A stretch of 63,822 nt of DNA, the filler included, from an uncultured Methanosarcinales archaeon (lineage in GTDB: Archaea > Nanobdellota > Nanobdellia > Woesearchaeales > CAYSVS01), in assembly GCA_964434475.1 (NCBI GenBank). It is 10 parts of 10 records of this genome, joined end to end, with 100 filler letters (N's around TTAATTAATTAA, not from the genome) between each part and the next. Parts side by side here need not be neighbours in the genome. Positions count along the whole stretch, not along the records: positions 36,201 to 42,659 come from CAYSVS010000066.1; 9 more parts are not named here. One strand, written 5' to 3'. The notes beneath the pieces are model-generated. The model had not been told where the DNA came from. It saw only the letters and a list, made by a program, of their open reading frames with translations, and searched no databases. The translations under genes and the position numbers were made by a program. Positions 36,201 through 60,982 of this stretch are shown here, piece after piece. Numbering within the stretch: the stretch's first letter is position 1; every line of letters starts with the position of its first letter.

Positions 36201-36292
36201 AGTGCAGCCATTGGAACAGCAATCAGTCCTGTTAAAAGGACAAGAACTAAACCAATTATAAATGCCCACTTACCAACTTGTTCTAGATCCAT
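36201..36292 (-). CDS. Small membrane protein, partial (5' part only)
   Basis: MDLEQVGKWAFIIGLVLVLLTGLIAVPMAA runs into the linker; GGGGGTG ribosome-binding site upstream. Confidence 0.6.
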
Positions 36293-36443
36293 TACATTTC
36301 ACCCCCCTTGTTTTAAATTACTATTTATATAAGAATAAAAGAATAATAAATATATAAAACTTTCTTTAAATACTTTGTATAAATTAACACTTCTTGCCTC
36401 TTCCGTTTTTTACTTTTTATAGAAACTTAAATTTAATTGTAAC

Positions 36444-36463
36444 TAACATCAGGATCCTTGTTA
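36444..36463. repeat. Miniature attC-like cassette junction TAACATCAGGATCCTTGTTA
   Basis: Identical copies at 37426, 55988 and 57439; variants at 56551, 60445 and, reversed, 50403 and 54751. Confidence 0.8.
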
Positions 36464-36654
36464 GTTGCGTCTTTTCTTAGAAAAGAAAAAGAATAGTGCA
36501 ACGATTCACAAGAAAATCCTATATTTTATGTATACCAAATTTTATAACTTTTTGAGTGTTTCACGAAGTGAAAAAATCCCTAAGAGTTATTTTCAAGGGC
36601 ATCTAAACAAAATAGAAAATGCGACACTCAAAGACAAACATTTTAGAGCAGAAC

Positions 36655-37350
36655 TTAAATTTCAAGAAGAAGTGCTTTATGATCAGAAATATTTAAACCC
36701 AAACATGAAAAAGATTTTAATTTAATTTTTTTTGGAATAAGGAAATAATCAAGACTGTATTTTGCAGGCGGATAAGAAATATATTTTTTTATCTGTCTTG
36801 AACAAACATATTCTTTATCTATTAAATTATAAATTATTTTAGGATCTCTTATGTTAAAATCTCCAATAATTAAAGGATTAATATTAAGTCTTTTAGCATA
36901 ACTTAAAGTTTCTTCAAGATGCAATTTACTAAATAAGTCATCTTGAGAATAATGAACTACTAAAATATTCTTTAAATTATTATCTTCGATTTTAATAGAC
37001 AAAATTCCTCTTGTATATTTATCATCAGGATGTTGCTTTAATTTTTTCTTTTTTACTTCTAGAACAGGTATGTTCGATAGTACTGCAATACCTTCGAAAC
37101 AATCAGGATTTTTTGGAGTTTTATTAACTTGATTAACGTCCATTGTTTTTCTAAAAACGCAATGTTTAAAACCTAAAATTTTGTTTAATTGTTTGGCTTG
37201 GTTATTTCCTTTAGAATTAAACCGTAAATCATCTCTTACTTCTTGAAATGTAACAATATCGGGATTATGTTTTTGAATGAACTTAATAATCTTTGATTTT
37301 CTTTTATCAAAATCATTATAATTCCATAAATTCAAATTTAAAATTTTCAT
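36655..37350 (-). CDS. Endonuclease/exonuclease/phosphatase (EEP) family protein; cassette cargo
   Basis: ILNLNLW, PDIVTFQEV, GIAVLS, IIGDFN, LDY, SDH. Confidence 0.9.
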   Translation of the reverse strand: MKILNLNLWNYNDFDKRKSKIIKFIQKHNPDIVTFQEVRDDLRFNSKGNNQAKQLNKILGFKHCVFRKTMDVNQVNKTPKNPDCFEGIAVLSNIPVLEVKKKKLKQHPDDKYTRGILSIKIEDNNLKNILVVHYSQDDLFSKLHLEETLSYAKRLNINPLIIGDFNIRDPKIIYNLIDKEYVCSRQIKKYISYPPAKYSLDYFLIPKKIKLKSFSCLGLNISDHKALLLEI

Positions 37351-37425
37351 AGTCTAACAACTATTTCAATTATTATTTAAGTTTTGCTTTTTATTTAAAA
37401 AATAGGACTCCTTATTTATTGTAAT

Positions 37426-37445
37426 TAACATCAGGATCCTTGTTA
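37426..37445. repeat. Miniature attC-like junction
   Basis: TAACATCAGGATCCTTGTTA exact copy. Confidence 0.8.
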
Positions 37446-37494
37446 TGTGGGGAGACTGCAAGTCGACCGACCAAAGGGACAGTTTGAAAACCAT

Positions 37495-37749
37495 TTACTT
37501 TTTCTTTTCAAAATTTATAAATGAAGCAACTAGTACGGATTCAATTGTTGTGATTAAGATTGCAAAAAAATCTGATGGTCCAGGAAGAAAAAAATCAAAT
37601 AATTTTACAGATCCATTTAGAAATGGACCTAAATCTTTAGGTAAACTAGAAAAGAAGATTTGTAAAATATATCCTATAAATAATAGGCTGAGAAATGAAA
37701 CTACGAATTTTATTATGATTTTTTTATGTTTTTTAAAATTAAGTTTCAT
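37495..37749 (-). CDS. Small two-TM hypothetical protein; cassette cargo (start re-assigned to ATG 37749)
   Basis: MKLNFKKHKK...; the longer ORF-track version runs through the attC-like site; TATA-like TTTATATA about 25 bp upstream. Confidence 0.6.
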   Translation of the reverse strand: MKLNFKKHKKIIIKFVVSFLSLLFIGYILQIFFSSLPKDLGPFLNGSVKLFDFFLPGPSDFFAILITTIESVLVASFINFEKKK

Positions 37750-37805
37750 ATTTGTGAATAGTAATGAGTTTATATAAATTTTTGGGAGGGTTTTCAAATT
37801 GCGTA

Positions 37806-37915
37806 TAACATCAGGATTTAGAGAAGTTTCGAACGAAGTGAGAAATTTGGGGAATAATCGGGAAATCGCTTGGCGATTTAGCGTAGCGACCGATTTTCCC
37901 TCTAAATCCTTGTTA
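37806..37915. repeat. Long (110-bp) attC-like site
   Basis: TAACATCAGGATTTAGAG ... CTCTAAATCCTTGTTA: same ends as the mini junctions, with an extended stem and internal hairpins. Confidence 0.75.
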
Positions 37916-38143
37916 GTTTCGTTTCCCATACGTAAGTGTGGGAAACCTGCGTCCGCAGAGTCGGGAAAGAGGGCGTTCTATCTAATGAGCGAATGCGATA
38001 CATCAAGAACAAGAATTAAAGGGGACAATTTTAATTTAGCAAAGCCAAAGGCTCTTTTAAAAACATATTTAGGAGTTCCAAAAAACTATTTGAATATTCT
38101 TTTAATTGCAGAAATTATTGCTTCAATTAATTCGGCAATCATT

Positions 38144-38905
38144 TTAATCTAATAATGCATTCAATTTTCCATAGAATTTTTGACATTCGCTAACTGAACC
38201 TGCCCAAGTTATAGCGTTGAAATTAAAACTTAGATCTTTTTTTCTTTTTCCTGTATCGTATACAATCTTCAATACTGATTTATGTGGTCTAAAACTTTGA
38301 CTATCTGTATCTCCACCTAAAAATCCCATAACTAAACCTCTTGCTAAACTAGGAGTGTATGAGTCATCAGTTATTTCAATATTTTCTATGTCTTCAAATT
38401 TAATTTCAAATTTTTCTTTATTAGCATTCTTAAAAATGACTTTTTTGTTAGCTATTGCTAACCAACCATTTGTTGGATCAGACACTTCTTTATGACCACC
38501 AAAAAAAGTTACTGAATTTTTAATAACTGCATTTGGAATTGAAACATCTTCTAGGGTTTTTCTATCTTTTCTAACTTGATCTGCTGCCCAAGATTGAATG
38601 TCTAATTTACATTTTTTACATTTATATGCTCCAAGTTGCCCACCACATTCAGGACATTTTCCATTTAATTTTGCTATAATACTAACATTTTTTGCTTTCC
38701 CAGCAACATCCCAAAAACCTAGTCGTTTACCCGTTTTTGATTTTTGTGTAGAACTTTCTTCATCTTTATCATCTGATTTTGGGCTTTTAACAAAACCAAT
38801 AATTCCCAAAGGTAAAGCAACTATGCCGATACCCATACCTAAAGTTAGAAATCCACCTATGGACAACCACCATTTATATTTTACACAAAAATCTATGAAT
38901 GTCAT
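38144..38905 (-). CDS. Membrane-anchored protein with Zn ribbon and possible PH-like domain; cassette cargo
   Basis: N-terminal TM, CPECG...CKKC, G.L.I.NKKVIF...I.FEDI..IEI pattern. Confidence 0.6.
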   Translation of the reverse strand: MTFIDFCVKYKWWLSIGGFLTLGMGIGIVALPLGIIGFVKSPKSDDKDEESSTQKSKTGKRLGFWDVAGKAKNVSIIAKLNGKCPECGGQLGAYKCKKCKLDIQSWAADQVRKDRKTLEDVSIPNAVIKNSVTFFGGHKEVSDPTNGWLAIANKKVIFKNANKEKFEIKFEDIENIEITDDSYTPSLARGLVMGFLGGDTDSQSFRPHKSVLKIVYDTGKRKKDLSFNFNAITWAGSVSECQKFYGKLNALLD

Positions 38906-38993
38906 TTAACTTATAAAAAGAATGAGTTATATTTAAATCTTTCGGTGTATATTCAGTGAAAAGGCAATATATAAATAGGGCATATTTAGTTCC

Positions 38994-39257
38994 ATGGATA
39001 AGTTAGGACTAATCTCATGGATTTTAAGAGGCTCACAGAGAAGAGTAATTTTTAAAGTAATTAAAGGAAAAATGATTCCAGCACAAATATATCAAGAAGC
39101 AAGAAAAATAAATGATAAAATTACTAGAAACAATGTAAGCGATATTTTAAGAGAAATGAGAGAACAAAAATTAGTTGAGTGCATAAATCCAAAGGAAACG
39201 AAAGGCAGAATATACCAATTAACTAAGAAAGGGCAGGAAATCAAGACAGAAATTTAA
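38994..39257 (+). CDS. Small archaeal winged-helix transcription regulator
   Basis: R..IFK, P.QI, NVSDILREM....LVECINP....GRIYQLT.KG. Confidence 0.8.
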   Translation: MDKLGLISWILRGSQRRVIFKVIKGKMIPAQIYQEARKINDKITRNNVSDILREMREQKLVECINPKETKGRIYQLTKKGQEIKTEI

Positions 39258-39292
39258 TTATTTTTAAATACTAGCGATATTTCTTTTAATCT

Positions 39293-40309
39293 ATGGATAA
39301 AAATAAATATTATGATGAAATTAAACAATTGCTAAATAAAGATTTAGACTTAAACAATAATATTAATAATCCATGGTTAGCATTTTTTAAAGATGATCAG
39401 TTTAATCTTCAAATATGCAATAACATAGTTAATTCTATTAAATATGTTAAAGAAAAAGATGAAGCTTTTTTTAATAAAATATTAAAACGTATTAATTCTA
39501 GTGACTATTGCGAAATATCATCAGCATTATCAGAAATAAGAGTTTTTTATTTTTTGCACAAAATTAATTTTAATGTAGAAACAAAAACTAATGAAAATGG
39601 AGCAAAACCCGAATATTATCTTGATAAAGATTATATAGTCGAAGTAAATGCACCAAATTATAGAAAAGAAGAATTAGTTTTATTAAATGATTTTAAGAGT
39701 AAAACTAATTCTCAATGTATAACTGAACATAGTACTACTCCATTTGGAAAAAAAGATAAGTTTACTGAGATTACTGCAAGTAATGTTATATCTAAAATTG
39801 CATCTATAAAAGGAAAAGAACATCAATTTTCAGATAATAAAAAGAATATTCTTTGGTTAGACTTTCAACATCCAATTTGGTGGTGCATAAATAATCCTGA
39901 GAGATCATTACCTTTTATTTCAAAGCAAGGAGGAATTTACTCAGGGGAATTTTGGTATTCTTTTTTTGGTTGGAAAGGAGCATTAATTTATGAAGGAAAA
40001 GTAGCAACTGTAATGGAACATCCAGGGAGATTTAATCAAAATAATACCAAGATTGATATGGTTATCATTTCATTACCCTCAAAAAATATCTTATTTCAAA
40101 ATCCAAATGGTAAAAAAATTGAAAATAGCTTTTTTGACAAAATCTTAGGTTTATCTTTTTTATCATTGGAATATTCTTGGGTGAATTATCCGTCTGAAGA
40201 TCTCAAAGAAAGATTATTACTTATATATGACCAGATTATGTCTTTTAATAGAGATTTATTTTATATTCCTAACTCTATTGAAAAAGATATAAAAGATTAT
40301 AATATTTAG
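39293..40309 (+). CDS. Hypothetical protein (possibly PD-(D/E)xK-like fold); cassette cargo
   Basis: 338-aa ORF; SE...KPE...VEV pattern only loosely resembles restriction-endonuclease folds. Confidence 0.5.
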   Translation: MDKNKYYDEIKQLLNKDLDLNNNINNPWLAFFKDDQFNLQICNNIVNSIKYVKEKDEAFFNKILKRINSSDYCEISSALSEIRVFYFLHKINFNVETKTNENGAKPEYYLDKDYIVEVNAPNYRKEELVLLNDFKSKTNSQCITEHSTTPFGKKDKFTEITASNVISKIASIKGKEHQFSDNKKNILWLDFQHPIWWCINNPERSLPFISKQGGIYSGEFWYSFFGWKGALIYEGKVATVMEHPGRFNQNNTKIDMVIISLPSKNILFQNPNGKKIENSFFDKILGLSFLSLEYSWVNYPSEDLKERLLLIYDQIMSFNRDLFYIPNSIEKDIKDYNI

Positions 40310-40403
40310 TTTTTGGAACTCCATTTAACTTTTTTAAAATTGTCCCCTCTCTGTTTTTTAGCCCTCTTTCCCGATTGAAACTAACAAGTATTAAACGACA
40401 CAC

Positions 40404-40772
40404 TCAATTTTTAGAGCATTTGTTACAAATGCCTTTAACTTCAATTTGAAAACTAGTTATAGATCCAGGAATTTTATCTTTAAGAAAATCTAACGAATCA
40501 ATGTTAAAGTGGATTACTTTTCCAGTTTTCTCGCAAACAAAGTGGCAATGACTTTTATTTTCTTTTGAATAAACCAATTTACCATCGCAAGCATATGAGA
40601 AAATGTTTCCATTTTTCCTTAATGTTTTTAGAAATCTATATATTGTGGCAAGCCCGATATTTTTATCAACTGATTTGACGTTTTCATAAAGGTCTTCAGC
40701 AGTAAAAAAAGTTTTGAATCTGTTTATTTCTTTCCCGATAATCTTTTTTTGCTTTGTACTTCTTGTTATCAT
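40404..40772 (-). CDS. Fur-family regulator (Zur-like)
   Basis: TKQK, TAEDLY, IGLATIYRFL, HCHFVCEKTG, GICNKC; divergent from the zinc ABC operon. Confidence 0.9.
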   Translation of the reverse strand: MITRSTKQKKIIGKEINRFKTFFTAEDLYENVKSVDKNIGLATIYRFLKTLRKNGNIFSYACDGKLVYSKENKSHCHFVCEKTGKVIHFNIDSLDFLKDKIPGSITSFQIEVKGICNKCSKN

Positions 40773-40840
40773 CCTTATTGATAATGAGAGCCAGTAAAGT
40801 TTATAAAGATTTTGATTTATTTATATGCTTGGTGATTATT

Positions 40841-41782
40841 ATGAAGATTAAAACTTTATTATTACTAGGAATTCTTATATTAACATTATTTCTGGTTGGG
40901 TGTAGTCAGGTTGCTCAAGAACAGAAAGATGACAAAATTGATGTGGTTGTGAGTATCCTTCCTCAAAAAGCATTTGTAAATGCAGTTGGAGGTAATTTGG
41001 TGAATGTAAAAGAACTTATTCCACCAGGAGGAAGTCCTGCAACATACGACCCAAAACCAAGCGATTTAGCATTGGTTGAAAAAGCCGACATTTATTTTAG
41101 AGTAGGGCATATATATTTTGAGAAATCCCATGTTGATAAATTTGCTGGATTGAATCCGGATATGAGAATAGTTGATACTTCTGTTAATGTAGAGTTGAGG
41201 CATTTTGGAGGACACGAAGACCATCATCATGAGCATGAAGGGGAAGTTGAAGAACATGAACATGAACATGAACATGAGGAAGATCGTCATGAAGGAGTTG
41301 ATCCACATCTTTGGCTTTCTCCAATGCAGGTAAAAAAGCAAGTCGATGTTATTGCCCAAACACTTGTGCAAGTTGATCCAGCTAATGTTGATACCTATAA
41401 CAGCAATGCTGAAAAATTCAAAAAAGAGCTAGATGCTTTATACACTGAAATAGAATCAACATTCTCTGAATTGAAAACAGACAAACTGATGGTTTTCCAT
41501 CCTGCGTGGGGCTATTTTGCAGACGAATATGGCTTGGAGCAGATAGCAATAGAAGACTCTGGAAAAGAGCCTACAGCGCAAGAACTTCAGCACATAATTG
41601 GGGAAGCTAAAGAAGAAGAGATTAAAGTAATCTTTGTTCAATCGCAATTCAGTAAGGAAACTGGTGAATCTGTTGCAGAAGAAGTTGGGGCAGTTGTTGT
41701 TTCTATTAATCCATTATCAGAAGATTACATTAATAACCTAAGAAATGTTGCTACAACAATTGCAGAAAGTTTAAATAAATAA
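40841..41782 (+). CDS. znuA: Zinc ABC transporter substrate-binding lipoprotein
   Basis: Lipobox LVGC, His/Glu-rich loop, DPHLWLSP, FHPAWGYF; GGTGA ribosome-binding site before ATG 40841. Confidence 0.92.
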   Translation: MKIKTLLLLGILILTLFLVGCSQVAQEQKDDKIDVVVSILPQKAFVNAVGGNLVNVKELIPPGGSPATYDPKPSDLALVEKADIYFRVGHIYFEKSHVDKFAGLNPDMRIVDTSVNVELRHFGGHEDHHHEHEGEVEEHEHEHEHEEDRHEGVDPHLWLSPMQVKKQVDVIAQTLVQVDPANVDTYNSNAEKFKKELDALYTEIESTFSELKTDKLMVFHPAWGYFADEYGLEQIAIEDSGKEPTAQELQHIIGEAKEEEIKVIFVQSQFSKETGESVAEEVGAVVVSINPLSEDYINNLRNVATTIAESLNK

Positions 41783-41846
41783 TTGTTTTATTTTATTTTT
41801 TTATGAAAAAATAATGCTCAAAAACTAGGTTTTTGTTGTTTAAAAA

Positions 41847-42551
41847 ATGGAAAGAAAAGAAATCATTAAATTAGAAAAAGTAACTTTTAGTTATGGAAAA
41901 GAGGAATTTCTAAAAGACATAAGTCTCTCAATCTATGAGGATGATTTTCTTGGAATCATAGGTCCAAATGGTGGTGGAAAAACAACACTGCTAAAATTGA
42001 TACTTGGCTTGCTTGAGCCTAAAAAAGGGAAAATAAGTGTATTTGGAAAATCTCCAAAAAAAGCACGCCATGAAATAGGCTATTTATCTCAATTTAAGAA
42101 CATTGATTTTGATTTTCCAGTTACAGCACATGGGATTGTCTTGCTTAGCAGAGTTGGAGATAAATTATTTAAAAGATATTCTAAAGAGGATAAAGAAGCT
42201 GTTAAAAAATCAATGAAAGAATTGGGTATTTGGAATTTAAGAGATAAAAAACTAAATGAATTATCTGGTGGAGAAAAGCAAAGAGTATTTGTTGCAAGAG
42301 CTCTAGCTAATAAGCCAAAAATTCTGATTTTAGATGAACCAATGTCAAATCTTGACATCCACATACAAGAAGAATTCTACAAGATTCTTAAAGAATTGAA
42401 CAAGAAAATCGCAATTGTCATTGTTGATCATGATCTTGAGATGGTTTCAAAATACGCAAAAGAAGTAGTCTGTGTTAACAAGTGCAATAAGCATGCGTTA
42501 AGGTATCATGGTGCAGATTCACTAAAGATGAAGGAGATCTGCAATGTTTGA
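41847..42551 (+). CDS. znuC: Zinc ABC transporter ATPase
   Basis: GPNGGGKTT, LSGGEKQRV, LDEP. Confidence 0.9.
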   Translation: MERKEIIKLEKVTFSYGKEEFLKDISLSIYEDDFLGIIGPNGGGKTTLLKLILGLLEPKKGKISVFGKSPKKARHEIGYLSQFKNIDFDFPVTAHGIVLLSRVGDKLFKRYSKEDKEAVKKSMKELGIWNLRDKKLNELSGGEKQRVFVARALANKPKILILDEPMSNLDIHIQEEFYKILKELNKKIAIVIVDHDLEMVSKYAKEVVCVNKCNKHALRYHGADSLKMKEICNV

Positions 42552-42659
42552 AGTTTTAAGTTTTCAATTTTTCCAGAATGCTCTGATTGTTGCTATTTTG
42601 GCATCAATTGCAGCAGGAGTAATTGGGACATACATTGTAGTTAAAAGAATGTCTTTGAT
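42544..42659 (+). CDS. znuB: Zinc ABC transporter permease, partial
   Basis: MFEVLSFQFFQNALIVAILASIAAGVIGTYIVVKRMSL runs into the linker. Confidence 0.85.
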
Positions 42660-50402: not shown

Positions 50403-50421
50403 TAACAGGCCGCCGATGTTA
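50403..50421. repeat. Miniature attC-like junction (reverse orientation) TAACAGGCCGCCGATGTTA
   Basis: Reverse complement reads TAACATCGGCGGCCTGTTA. Confidence 0.75.
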
Positions 50422-54575: not shown

Positions 54576-54750
54576 CTACTTCGCCTTTCTTCTTGTCCTT
54601 GATGTGTCGCATTCGCTCTTTCTTATCGGACTAAAATCCCCCGTCCTTCGGACATATAGACTCCCTTTGGTCGAAATAATATAAACTTAAACTAAACTCT
54701 TCGGTTTCCCTTCGGGACGTTGCACTAAACCTCGGTCTTGCAGACGCAAC

Positions 54751-54770
54751 TAACAAGGATCCCGACGTTA
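54751..54770. repeat. Miniature attC-like junction (reverse orientation) TAACAAGGATCCCGACGTTA
   Basis: Reverse complement TAACGTCGGGATCCTTGTTA, two substitutions from consensus. Confidence 0.8.
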
Positions 54771-54921: not shown

Positions 54922-54975
54922 AAGTGTTCAACTACCTAATTTTTTCGGTTTTTAGAAAAATCTGCACAACTCCAG
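54922..54975. mobile_element. Multi-copy element end (putative IS terminus), identical to 60765-60817
   Basis: AGTGTTCAACTACCTAATTTTTTCGGTTTTTAGAAAAATCTGCACAACTCCAG at two contig starts with different right flanks. Confidence 0.7.
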
Positions 54976-55987: not shown

Positions 55988-56007
55988 TAACATCAGGATC
56001 CTTGTTA
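55988..56007. repeat. Miniature attC-like junction
   Basis: TAACATCAGGATCCTTGTTA exact copy. Confidence 0.8.
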
Positions 56008-56076
56008 AACGTCCCTGACGAAGTGAGAGCGCAGCGTGGGTCGAGGCGAAGCCGAAGAAGTTTTTATTTTGGCACG

Positions 56077-56493
56077 TTAAAACATAGAAAGAACTTGAGA
56101 ATACTTTGATTTAATTTCTTCTAATTTTGCTTTAGTAATTTTGAAGTCTTCATCTTTCAATTCCCAGCAAAATTCAGTAACTGGTTCACCATCAAGACTT
56201 TCATCAAAGGATAAATAATTCATATCATCTCCACTTGGACCATAAAGAAATTCATAATCATAATGCGCTAAAAATTCTTGATATTCTTTGATATTCAAAT
56301 TATTATAATTGTCAATAATATAATTAATTACTTGGATTATGAATTTTATAATTCTTTGAGCAAATTCTTTATCTTCGGGAATTATTTCATCAGCATATTT
56401 TTTCCAATCATTCTGAATTTTGCTGTATTCTCTATTGATTTCATAATATTCATTCTCAAGTTCTTTAGGTAACTTAATCTTTAACATATACAT
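56077..56493 (-). CDS. Acidic hypothetical protein; cassette cargo
   Basis: Single ORF filling the space between junctions 55988 and 56551. Confidence 0.65.
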   Translation of the reverse strand: MYMLKIKLPKELENEYYEINREYSKIQNDWKKYADEIIPEDKEFAQRIIKFIIQVINYIIDNYNNLNIKEYQEFLAHYDYEFLYGPSGDDMNYLSFDESLDGEPVTEFCWELKDEDFKITKAKLEEIKSKYSQVLSMF

Positions 56494-56550
56494 AGTAGAA
56501 TAAGTTGAATCTTAAAAAAGTATCGAAAGTGCTGAAATAAAAATTGCAAT

Positions 56551-56568
56551 TAACATCGCGCGCTGTTA
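56551..56568. repeat. Miniature attC-like junction variant TAACATCGCGCGCTGTTA
   Basis: Conserved TAACATC and TGTTA ends with a different self-complementary core. Confidence 0.75.
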
Positions 56569-56699
56569 GTTTCGTCTGACCTATTGGAAGACCTAAAATT
56601 TAATGCAACGTCCCGAAGGGAAATTTTTGAGTTTTCATAATCGCCGTCCATCCAAAAAACGAAGTGATACATCATGACAAAGAATGAAGGGGCAAAAGC

Positions 56700-57365
56700 T
56701 TATTTTTTCTGAAATAGATAAAATATAAATTGGTATGGTTTTACTTTGGAAGAATCAAAGTATTTGATTCTATCTACGGGTTTAAAGCTCAGTTTGTCAA
56801 GTAACTTTTCATCGTTAACAATATCAATTAGATGTTGTGTGCTCCTATCTACCCTAGAATCTATTTTTTTCATTTCTACAACTTGATCAAAATATTCATT
56901 AGCTAAATAAAATCCGCCTGGTTTTAGTACTCGACCAATTTCTCTAAGTGCTTGAGTGTAGTTTATGCTAAAATTATCAAAAGTCATTTCATTAGAATGA
57001 ACTACATCAAAGAAATTGGATTCAAAATCCATTTGTTCAACCGAACCAACTACTTTATGAACTCTTGGATATTCATCATGTTCAAAATTTTTTGGATCTT
57101 GATCTAATGAATATAAGTTTTCAGGCTTTAAACCATAATAAAGTAGACCTTTACAAAAAACAGAACCTAAACCACATCCAACATCTAAAACAACTTTATC
57201 TTTTACATTCTGAATCAAGTTTTTAAGGAGTGGATGAATTGGTTGAATTACATTATATTTTTGTTCTTCTAAATACATTTGTAATATGCCTGGGTCAGGA
57301 CTATTTCTATGAAAACTTGACAATTCATCTTGATCTTGACCACTTGGTGAATTTTTAGCAACCAT
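56700..57365 (-). CDS. Class I SAM-dependent methyltransferase; cassette cargo
   Basis: VLDVGCGLG, FDVV, ALREIGRVLKPGG. Confidence 0.9.
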   Translation of the reverse strand: MVAKNSPSGQDQDELSSFHRNSPDPGILQMYLEEQKYNVIQPIHPLLKNLIQNVKDKVVLDVGCGLGSVFCKGLLYYGLKPENLYSLDQDPKNFEHDEYPRVHKVVGSVEQMDFESNFFDVVHSNEMTFDNFSINYTQALREIGRVLKPGGFYLANEYFDQVVEMKKIDSRVDRSTQHLIDIVNDEKLLDKLSFKPVDRIKYFDSSKVKPYQFIFYLFQKK

Positions 57366-57438
57366 ATTTTAAAGTAACATGTGGAATGTTATAAAGCTTT
57401 TGCCCCATTTACATTTAGGCGATTACGAAAATTGAAAC

Positions 57439-57458
57439 TAACATCAGGATCCTTGTTA
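57439..57458. repeat. Miniature attC-like junction
   Basis: TAACATCAGGATCCTTGTTA exact copy. Confidence 0.8.
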
Positions 57459-57674
57459 AACTCTCCGTTAGGATTGATTTTTAGTGCAACGTTCCGAAGG
57501 AAAAAATCAAAGTCGAGAAAGAGGGCGTTCTATCGAATGAGCGAATGCGATATATAAAAATAAACATATATGGGTGAAATAAGAGATATCTAGTTTTTCA
57601 TATTATGAGTTTAGTTTTTAATTTATATTACTTATATCCTTAGATTTATAAATTAGTTTTTATTTCCTAAATAA

Positions 57675-60396: not shown

Positions 60397-60444
60397 TGGA
60401 ATGGGGCTCCTTCTAAAAATTAAAAGTCTTTTTTGAATTGAGTT

Positions 60445-60464
60445 TAACATCGGGATCGCTGTTA
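60445..60464. repeat. Miniature attC-like junction variant TAACATCGGGATCGCTGTTA
   Basis: Conserved ends, variant core. Confidence 0.75.
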
Positions 60465-60764: not shown

Positions 60765-60817
60765 AGTGTTCAACTACCTAATTTTTTCGGTTTTTAGAAA
60801 AATCTGCACAACTCCAG
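60765..60817. mobile_element. Multi-copy element end (putative IS terminus)
   Basis: Identical to 54923-54975. Confidence 0.7.
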
Positions 60818-60865: not shown

Positions 60866-60982
60866 GAGAGGGTTGCAGAGTCTGGTCAAATGCGCAGGAC
60901 TTAAGCACCAAGGACACTTCATCTTGAGGTGAAGATATCCTGTCCCTTAGTGGGTCCGGGGGTTCGAATCCCCTCCCTCTCA
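60866..60982 (+). tRNA. tRNA-Leu(TAA) with 31-nt intron at 37/38 (60906-60936)
   Basis: Acceptor GAGAGGG/CCCTCTC plus A, anticodon stem CAGGA/TCCTG, TAA at 60902-60904, long variable arm, GGGGG-TTCGAAT-CCCCT; TTTATAAA promoter upstream. Confidence 0.92.

Follow-up and report, generated by a model that had tools for sequence, protein, structure and literature searches.

The best-known example of recombination guided by folded single-stranded DNA is the integron, and the origin of integrons and of their cassettes is still open. Folded single strands serve the integrase IntI at attC sites and a folded single strand serves XerCD at the CTX phage site, while pdif modules of Acinetobacter plasmids exploit the Xer/dif system through sites that alternate in orientation. 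Canonical attC sites, archaeal ones included, conform to the pattern xxTAAC-AAnTC-L''...L'-nnnnn-GTTAxx (Data S9/S10, PMC9668308; Ghaly et al., 2022), and dif, as described in PMC2958812, consists of two inverted 11 bp arms around a spacer whose length is set at 6 bp and does not exceed 8 bp (11+6+11). Here we describe the gene cassettes found in a 63,822 nt stretch of DNA (the window), which is made up of contigs of a 1.5 Mb, 148-contig metagenome-assembled genome (GCA_964434475.1) joined by N...TTAATTAATTAA...N linkers and has a G+C content of 30%. The paired arms that had drawn attention to this DNA are the ends and junction sites of gene cassettes that a DPANN archaeon of Woesearchaeota type carries in integron-like arrays; the main finding concerns contig C66 (window 36201-42659), and further examples lie on C70 (54922-60664).

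Like integron cassettes, including those of integrase-less attC clusters (CALINs), the archaeal cassettes form co-oriented arrays of promoter-independent accessory-gene units. As in attC, the sites have TAAC and GTTA boxes, the box after a site is complementary to the box that ends the same, downstream cassette, and the site forms a hairpin that is imperfect, some bases being left unpaired and the tip varying; one folded DNA strand is known to be used at attC and would be used at the archaeal cassettes as well. The recombined strand of attCaadA7 likewise bears a C(GAA)G loop (primer, Data S10, PMC9668308). Unlike in integrons, IntI is absent, TIGR02249 matches remaining below the cut-off in every genome tested, and the cargo runs in either direction, without co-orientation under a common promoter. 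Unlike those of attC, the R boxes comprise 9 bp with a free 5 nt code (qualified below), the central spacer is nearly gone, A/TC standing against T where the attCs in Data S9/S10 (PMC9668308) have 5-6 nt, the favoured strand bears its extra bases on the 5' arm, and most sites are only ∼26-30 nt long. With the L-box stem of attC may be compared a P1 stem with a variable tip and a 2 nt bulge (TC), of which most sites keep only a palindrome of 4-11 nt. A second, inner private clamp and hairpin modules further distinguish these units from integron cassettes.

With Xer/dif the arrays share XerA-type recombinases as the only type present, TGTTA-type half-sites in inverted order, shortest sites that fit two arms and a 6 bp spacer, and a xerA gene beside the array in two loci. 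They differ from it in a spacer of 6 to 176 nt, on which the fixed-spacer definition failed, in the private clamps of each cassette, and in a link between XerA and the sites that is presumptive. Unlike the sites of pdif modules, the cassette sites are co-oriented.

Woesearchaeales genomes are few in the available part of Data S1 (PMC9668308), each having 2-12 attCs, and a junction pattern related to the one described here is far more frequent than that, being present in 139 of 401 sampled genomes of the archaeal order, or about one-third (a count that includes six genomes flagged as unpublished, on which no other result rests). The strings TAACATCG and TAACATCA are absent from the supplement file of PMC9668308, which lists only nine tested attCs and primers, and a literature search on archaeal integrons and attC, XerA and DPANN cassettes, and Woesearchaeal CALINs and Xer found no description of such a cassette platform. 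The arrays represent a second, abundant system with the same strand-specific signature as integrons, without IntI and with cassettes that carry their own clamps. If the interpretation developed below is true, the folded-strand principle would be older or more easily evolved than thought, XerA and 26 nt sites would provide a simple experimental model, and a handle would be gained on accessory-gene exchange in very small DPANN genomes. The evidence on strand is the new contribution of the present analysis.

Results

Junction sites and the cassettes between them

The analysis set consisted of arrays from 20 further genomes and of 80 metagenome loci with their flanks. It held 317 signature sites in 173 sources, one single site lying alone on the minority strand of its source, and yielded 113 distinct adjacent-site cassettes. 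Orientation was fixed by the asymmetric ATC/T and the upstream ATT, independently of pairing, and G.T and A.C were scored equally throughout the detection steps; the related sequences in this set are not independent. In the window's genome the junction motif ATTGNNNNTAACATC occurred 21 times as against once for the reversed control, and the window itself contains ten junction sites of one family, seven on the plus and three on the minus strand, the latter on contig C69 (Table 1). An array of 22 sites in 25 kb was found in genome G043, at the end of a 559 kb contig (record PCXY01000005.1), and other well-assembled arrays are those of G041, G045, G008, G319 and G135. A loose pattern, AATTGNNNNTAACATC...TGTTA, was also scanned across the genome-contig collection and was discarded, its matches being mostly chance and bacterial.

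A site reads N5'-TAAC-A-TC-core-T-GTTA-N5, and successive sites are co-oriented. At the core stands either a GC-rich palindrome 4-11 nt long, most commonly AGGATCCT, GCGCGC, GGAATTCC or GCGATCGC, or a three-way hairpin of 80-176 nt, the long insert being ordered as an 11 bp stem (P1), GAAGT, a hairpin (P2), ATTTGGG and a second hairpin (P3). The short cores correspond to the outer bases of the long stems directly joined, as in AGGAT joined to ATCCT compared with AGGATTTAGAG...CTCTAAATCCT, or in GGAATT..AATTCC. TAAC and GTTA were invariant across 26 aligned long sites.

The five bases (N5) after GTTA pair with the five bases (N5') preceding TAAC of the next site and not with those preceding TAAC of their own site, and the cassette is therefore the unit GTTA-N5...N5'-TAAC, in which the two mutually complementary stretches complete a private outer clamp of 9 bp. 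This clamp was perfect in 57 of the 113 distinct cassettes and carried one mismatch in 20, whereas 502 of 12,656 non-cognate arm combinations (4%) were perfect. Just within it lies a second private inverted repeat of 13-18 bp, the inner clamp, whose right arm usually ends two bases ahead of N5' (conserved AATT) and whose left arm, 40-170 nt from the cassette 5' end, follows a hairpin module of ∼40-170 nt, which fills the interval from the outer to the inner clamp on the 5' side. In 61 of 74 cassettes tested the inner clamp scored above the 95th percentile of the non-cognate control pairs, with a median score of 14 versus 9, and 59 distinct inner arm pairs were counted, the cassette ends being private beyond GTTA/TAAC.

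The 5 nt private arms form a set that recurs across unrelated genomes (GAAAC, GAGTT, GCGTA, GAATA, GCAAC and others), which is why non-cognate arms match perfectly as often as they do. Either the 5 nt arm code is not free, or the cassettes are widely shared.

Pairing, loops and folding energy favour one strand

The strand reading TAAC-ATC...T-GTTA, hereafter the site strand, has the advantage over its complement in pairing, in loops and in folding energy. The distance between the TAACA and TGTTA half-sites spans 6 to 176 nt: among 262 short sites only about 22, with cores GCGC and GTCC, have 6 nt and most have 8-13 nt, and the 51 long sites have 64-164 nt. Such variable spacing fits a hairpin extruded between TAACA and TGTTA, not a fixed duplex core. 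The stems of the long sites covaried, with compensatory changes at 17 of 26 predicted pairs among the 26 aligned sequences. Of 195 triloop hairpins, 91 had a GNA loop on the site strand, mostly C(GAA)G, C(GTA)G, C(GCA)G or T(GCA)A, and only five the complementary TNC (p = 2e-21). In this dominance of C-GNA-G triloops among the hairpins of one strand the arrays resemble the DNA mini-hairpins d(GCGNAGC) described in PMC13037366, unlike which they have them in cassette junctions and leaders and not in a known origin.

When folded with DNA parameters, the site strand was more stable than its complement in 50 of the 51 distinct long sites, by a mean of 2.5 kcal/mol, and a second folding calculation favoured it in four sites out of four. 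The first 120 nt of the cassettes (the 5' leaders) were likewise more stable on the site strand, in 84 versus 21 cases, as compared with 46 versus 30 for mid-cassette controls.

Counts of G.T and A.C appositions

In an earlier note on this DNA, mismatches between paired arms had been described as mostly G.T on one strand, with one A.C counter-example, and a binomial count over a larger set of cassettes had been proposed. All the arm pairs quoted there were present and paired as described, and the two deeper ones proved to be inner clamps on either side of the cargo reading frames 36655-37350 and 56077-56493. The A.C apposition at 56636-56645/57418-57427 was confirmed, but a second one had been overlooked, in the outer arms of cassette 56008-56550.

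Over the larger set the predicted excess was found, G.T-containing stems outnumbering A.C-containing ones by 43 to 8 distinct stems in all four classes taken together (binomial p = 7e-7; p = 1.6e-4 against a composition-adjusted expectation of 0.6). G.T, A.C and other mismatches numbered 8, 0 and 12 in single-mismatch outer clamps, 7, 0 and 6 in inner clamps, 18, 2 and 14 in the 11 bp P1 stems (32 distinct arm pairs) and 14, 6 and 19 in the short palindromic cores. When sources were compared, G.T exceeded A.C in 26, the reverse held in 6 and the two were equal in 36. Non-cognate controls gave G.T:A.C ratios of 160:110 (outer) and 50:40 (inner). Outer clamps matching at three of five positions (G.T 6, A.C 5, other 13) were excluded from the strict count, about 9 of 12 of these being expected to be non-cognate due to undetected intermediate sites. 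Four strand-specific signals agree with one another, and among them the G.T count is the weakest; the idea that what matters is base pairing within one specific strand, and not a symmetric duplex protein site, is supported mainly by the evidence beyond it.

Recombinases in array-bearing genomes

No integron integrase was found: the best TIGR02249 match in the window's genome scored 35.7 bits (cut-off 265), and seven full-length recombinases of three array-bearing genomes reached 173-216 bits, each split in two stretches. All seven scored higher on the XerA model NF040815, on which the full-length genes of G041, G043 and G045 gave 210-268 bits and a 206 aa one 131 bits. Tyrosine recombinases of PF00589 were present in all five array-bearing genomes searched. 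In two arrays a xerA-like gene lies downstream of the last site and co-oriented with it, at 0.6 and 3 kb; in G045 the single tyrosine recombinase gene is located away from the array, and upstream of the G043 array, which extends to the contig end, housekeeping genes and no recombinase were seen. A long site on contig C111 of the window's genome has a recombinase fragment next to it. From these data we infer that XerA acting in trans is the only consistent candidate enzyme.

On C111 (L003 124-1525) and in G041 (L141 5514-11487), an archaeo-eukaryotic primase-polymerase domain (PF22548) is fused to a truncated tyrosine-recombinase-like domain. The fusion gene directly follows a long-form site with the same leader (GTTAGGCGTAGGCGGAC...); it is split or decayed in the window's genome, and in G041 it lies within a 5.8 kb cassette that has a perfect 10 bp clamp. 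Such a cassette could be self-replicating or a helper cassette.

Discussion

It appears fairly probable that these are attC-like sites which fold as single-stranded DNA, within an integron-like cassette platform that is probably run by Xer. On this proposal the sites would recombine while the TAAC-ATC strand is single-stranded, for example as lagging-strand template or in an excised single-stranded circle. The substrate would be the folded site together with the clamps, which would bring the two ends of a cassette together; the crossover would fall in or beside T-GTTA, so that the upstream cassette would keep the stem and the downstream cassette N5; and the enzyme would be a XerA-family tyrosine recombinase supplied in trans. 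We also put forward, tentatively and as a proposition that may well fail, that DPANN archaea run a widespread IntI-free cassette platform, in which a housekeeping-type XerA acts on sites folding as single-stranded DNA, and cassettes use their own two-tier clamp and DNA mini-hairpins to join their ends on one strand, probably the lagging-strand template. It might be a parallel invention of the integron principle or the relic of a Xer-based state before integrons, with unpaired bases that mirror those of bacterial attC.

A number of observations weigh against single-strand folding and recombination by Xer. No recombination was observed, the contigs of four public runs aligned to C66 giving joints or loose ends only at repeated modules and no clean excision or insertion junction; at one loose end on C66 the same cassette start stands behind a long-form site rather than a compact one. 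The only intact tyrosine recombinase of the window's genome is a short XerA-like protein of 212 aa (107 bits) on contig C40, near which no site was found. Compact sites with 4-8 nt cores cannot by themselves form a two-protein hairpin, and the favoured strand has its extra bases (TC) in the 5' arm, while the recombined strand of attCaadA7 has them in the 3' arm (primer, Data S10, PMC9668308).

Other such observations concern the G.T excess itself. The same positions recur, five of the eight outer-clamp G.T cases being of one NNCGA/TTGNN type and P1 position 9 accounting for half of those in P1. In a set of 537 local hairpins taken near sites without selection, isolated G.T and A.C stood at 70:29, which fell to 37:29 (p = 0.39) when two conserved wobbles, one at the base of P2 (AAGT/ATTT) and one in a leader hairpin (TAC-GNA-GTG), were left out. 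In the clamps, transversion-type mismatches (12 and 6) equalled G.T in frequency, and this is not what simple selection for pairing predicts. At third codon positions G exceeded C on the site strand by 0.10 (p = 1e-4) whatever the gene direction, with no T/A effect, strand bias having been separated from coding bias by comparison of plus and minus open reading frames (ORFs). This skew fits the composition expected of a strand that is longer single-stranded, and would by itself favour C-to-T changes and hence G.T; both G.T pairs that could be polarized by a perfect relative were indeed C to T on the site strand. GC skew along three array-bearing contigs mainly followed gene direction and gave no indication of the direction of replication.

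The codon skew, the C-to-T polarity and the undepleted transversions are what speaks for ordinary duplex recombination or transposon ends, in which complementarity would be a by-product of end-making and the G.T excess mutational, C changing to T on the strand more exposed during replication; the shortest sites (TAACA + 6 + TGTTA) also match the 11+6+11 layout of dif. However, a skew of 0.10 implies a G.T share of ∼55-60% and not 43 of 51, and selection and mutation bias therefore probably both act. In the earlier proposal that selection acts on base pairing, selection is therefore not the sole source of the bias, mutation bias contributing as well. The duplex explanation moreover leaves unexplained the 91:5 ratio of GNA loops, the covarying stems, the wide range of spacing and the folding advantage of nearly all long sites; the cassettes have no target-site duplication and no encoded transposase, and a Y1 transposase was found in only two of five array-bearing genomes. 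We therefore regard it as unlikely.

The structures might instead act in RNA form, the array or its individual junctions being transcribed from the TAAC-ATC strand and the folded transcript serving in processing, as a guide, or as the template from which cassettes are made by reverse transcription; G.U pairs, which are normal in RNA, would then explain the bias. The conserved wobbles in covarying stems resemble those of RNA (AAGT/ATTT in 25 of 26 sequences, and TAC-GNA-GTG), and the M1 hairpin of the window has a GTAA loop, which is of the GNRA type. Single-stranded DNA is nevertheless favoured over RNA as the folded form. The largest cassette ORF ran with the sites in 23 and against them in 26 of 49 cassettes (36 and 36 in a larger set), and the fold is therefore not a feature of mRNAs. 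G.T was rare in the clamps, with 7 in 902 inner-clamp pairs, far under what typical RNA stems tolerate. According to PMC13037366, no triloop other than GNA gives the DNA mini-hairpin, with d(GCGNAGC) melting at 70-76 °C and the much weaker r(GCGAAAGC) at 39 °C, and such mini-hairpins mark single-strand replication signals, e.g. phage and plasmid single-strand origins. No Rfam family matched the structures: at the gathering threshold Rfam 15 gave only a tRNA in the window, and when two stretches rich in sites were scanned permissively, three matches at chance level (E 0.18-0.31) resulted. In sum, action as RNA seems to us quite unlikely.

Movement of the cassettes by an HUH/Y1 (IS200/IS605-type) single-strand 'peel and paste' reaction in place of a Xer-family tyrosine recombinase would account for strand-specific hairpins and a single-strand signature, both typical of such elements, and one Y1_Tnp gene (87.9 bits) is present in the window's genome on contig C102, but that gene stands in an ordinary insertion sequence (IS) context with no site nearby, Y1_Tnp occurs in two of five array-bearing genomes, broken in one and absent from the genome with the largest array, and the TAAC/GTTA boxes resemble Xer/IntI sites, so that this mechanism is highly improbable and was rejected, the Y1 transposase being sporadic and not associated with the sites. 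A transposon with terminal inverted repeats, or a miniature inverted-repeat transposable element, was rejected as well, the inverted ends being private to each cassette, the units abutting at conserved junctions and no duplicated flank being seen in the junction sequences.

Features of the window and minor observations

The features of the arrays are listed in Table 1. The cargo consists of unrelated accessory genes, in the window an endonuclease/phosphatase-family protein, two S-adenosylmethionine methyltransferases, an HxlR-like regulator and unknowns. The sequence AAGTATTA, which follows position 40385 at the end of the C66 array, suggests a decayed terminal half-site.

Table 1. Junction sites, clamps and cargo of the cassette arrays, with positions counted along the window.
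Feature	Position	Strand	Remarks
Compact junction site TAAC-ATC-AGGATCCT-T-GTTA, upstream of cassette A	36444..36463	+	Identical 20-mer at 37426, 55988 and 57439
Cassette A outer clamp, 5' arm GTTAGTTGC	36460..36468	+	Pairs with 37421-37429; 2 G.T in 9 pairs, third G.T at position 10
Cassette A inner clamp, left arm AGAGCAGAACT	36645..36655	+	Adjoins stop codon of minus-strand ORF
Cassette A cargo ORF, 231 aa, endonuclease/exonuclease/phosphatase family	36655..37350	-	Pfam PF03372, 53.5 bits
Cassette A inner clamp, right arm AGTTTTGCTTT	37380..37390	+	2 G.T in 11 pairs with 36645-36655
Cassette A outer clamp, 3' arm GTAATTAAC	37421..37429	+	Pairs with 36460-36468
Compact junction site joining cassettes A and B	37426..37445	+	
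Cassette B outer clamp, 5' arm GTTATGTG	37442..37449	+	Pairs with 37802-37809; one G.T and one T.G
Cassette B outer clamp, 3' arm CGTATAAC	37802..37809	+	
Long-form junction site: TAAC-ATC, P1 of 11 bp (AGGATTTAGAG/CTCTAAATCCT), GAAGT, P2, ATTTGGG, P3, T-GTTA	37806..37915	+	DNA fold -23.3 kcal/mol versus -21.0 for the complement, z -5.0
Cassette C outer clamp, 5' arm GTTAGTTTC	37912..37920	+	Perfect 9 bp partner at 40377-40385
Cassette C inner clamp, left arm CGGGAAAGAGGGC	37962..37974	+	Perfect 13 bp partner at 40361-40373
Cassette C right end: inner-clamp arm GCCCTCTTTCCCG, ATT, GAAACTAAC	40361..40385	+	Followed by AAGTATTA
Long-form junction site, contig C69	49106..49199	-	Array on minus strand
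Compact site, core GGCGGCC	50403..50421	-	Cassette between this site and 49199 has perfect clamp GTTAAAATC/GATTTTAAC
Compact site TAACGTCGGGATCCTTGTTA	54751..54770	-	G.T in TAACG/TGTTA and in core
Compact site upstream of cassette D	55988..56007	+	
Cassette D inner clamp, left arm TTTTGGCAC	56067..56075	+	Adjoins stop of minus-strand ORF 56077-56493; T.G and G.T with 56529-56537
Cassette D inner clamp, right arm GTGCTGAAA	56529..56537	+	
Compact site, core GCGCGC	56551..56568	+	
Cassette E outer clamp GTTAGTTTC	56565..56573	+	Perfect partner GAAACTAAC at 57434-57442
Cassette E middle clamp CATAATCGCC	56636..56645	+	Pairs with GGCGATTACG at 57418-57427; contains A.C
Cassette E inner clamp GGGGCAAAAGCTT	56689..56701	+	Perfect 13 bp partner at 57394-57406; flanks methyltransferase ORF 56700-57365 (minus strand)
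Compact site joining cassettes E and F	57439..57458	+	
Cassette F outer clamp GTTAAACTC	57455..57463	+	Perfect partner GAGTTTAAC at 60440-60448; 3 kb cassette with three ORFs
Compact site, core GGGATCGC, near contig end	60445..60464	+	

The leader module that follows the long site on C66 (37929-38144; …GAAAGAGGGCGTTCTATC.AATGAGCGAATGCGATA…) occurs again at 57510 and, reverse-complemented, at 54600. Its depth was 7-8 times that of its surroundings in two public runs, and it is therefore a multi-copy non-coding module. At 2932-2965, on contig C60, a solitary remnant, ATTGTGTATAACATCAGTTATATTC, represents a junction site without palindrome outside any array.

A stretch of ∼52 nt (AGTGTTCAACTACC...CACAACTCCAG) was found at contig ends, namely at 54922-54973, at 60765-60817, at the start of C111 (L003 1-51) and at the end of C4. 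It is followed by differing sequence, twice with a TTTATAAAT box, and is a dispersed repeat that breaks the assembly. The tRNA at 60866-60982 (plus strand) was detected by Rfam alone (42 bits), ARAGORN reporting none in the whole window, and with its length of 117 nt it is probably intron-bearing.

The exact 20 nt compact site was also encountered on a contig of a bin assigned to Peribacteria, a candidate phyla radiation bacterium (L014, MFXU01000033.1), and on contigs labelled Methanosarcinales (L008, L010-L012). This occurrence reflects either binning or label errors, or the transfer of cassettes across lineages.

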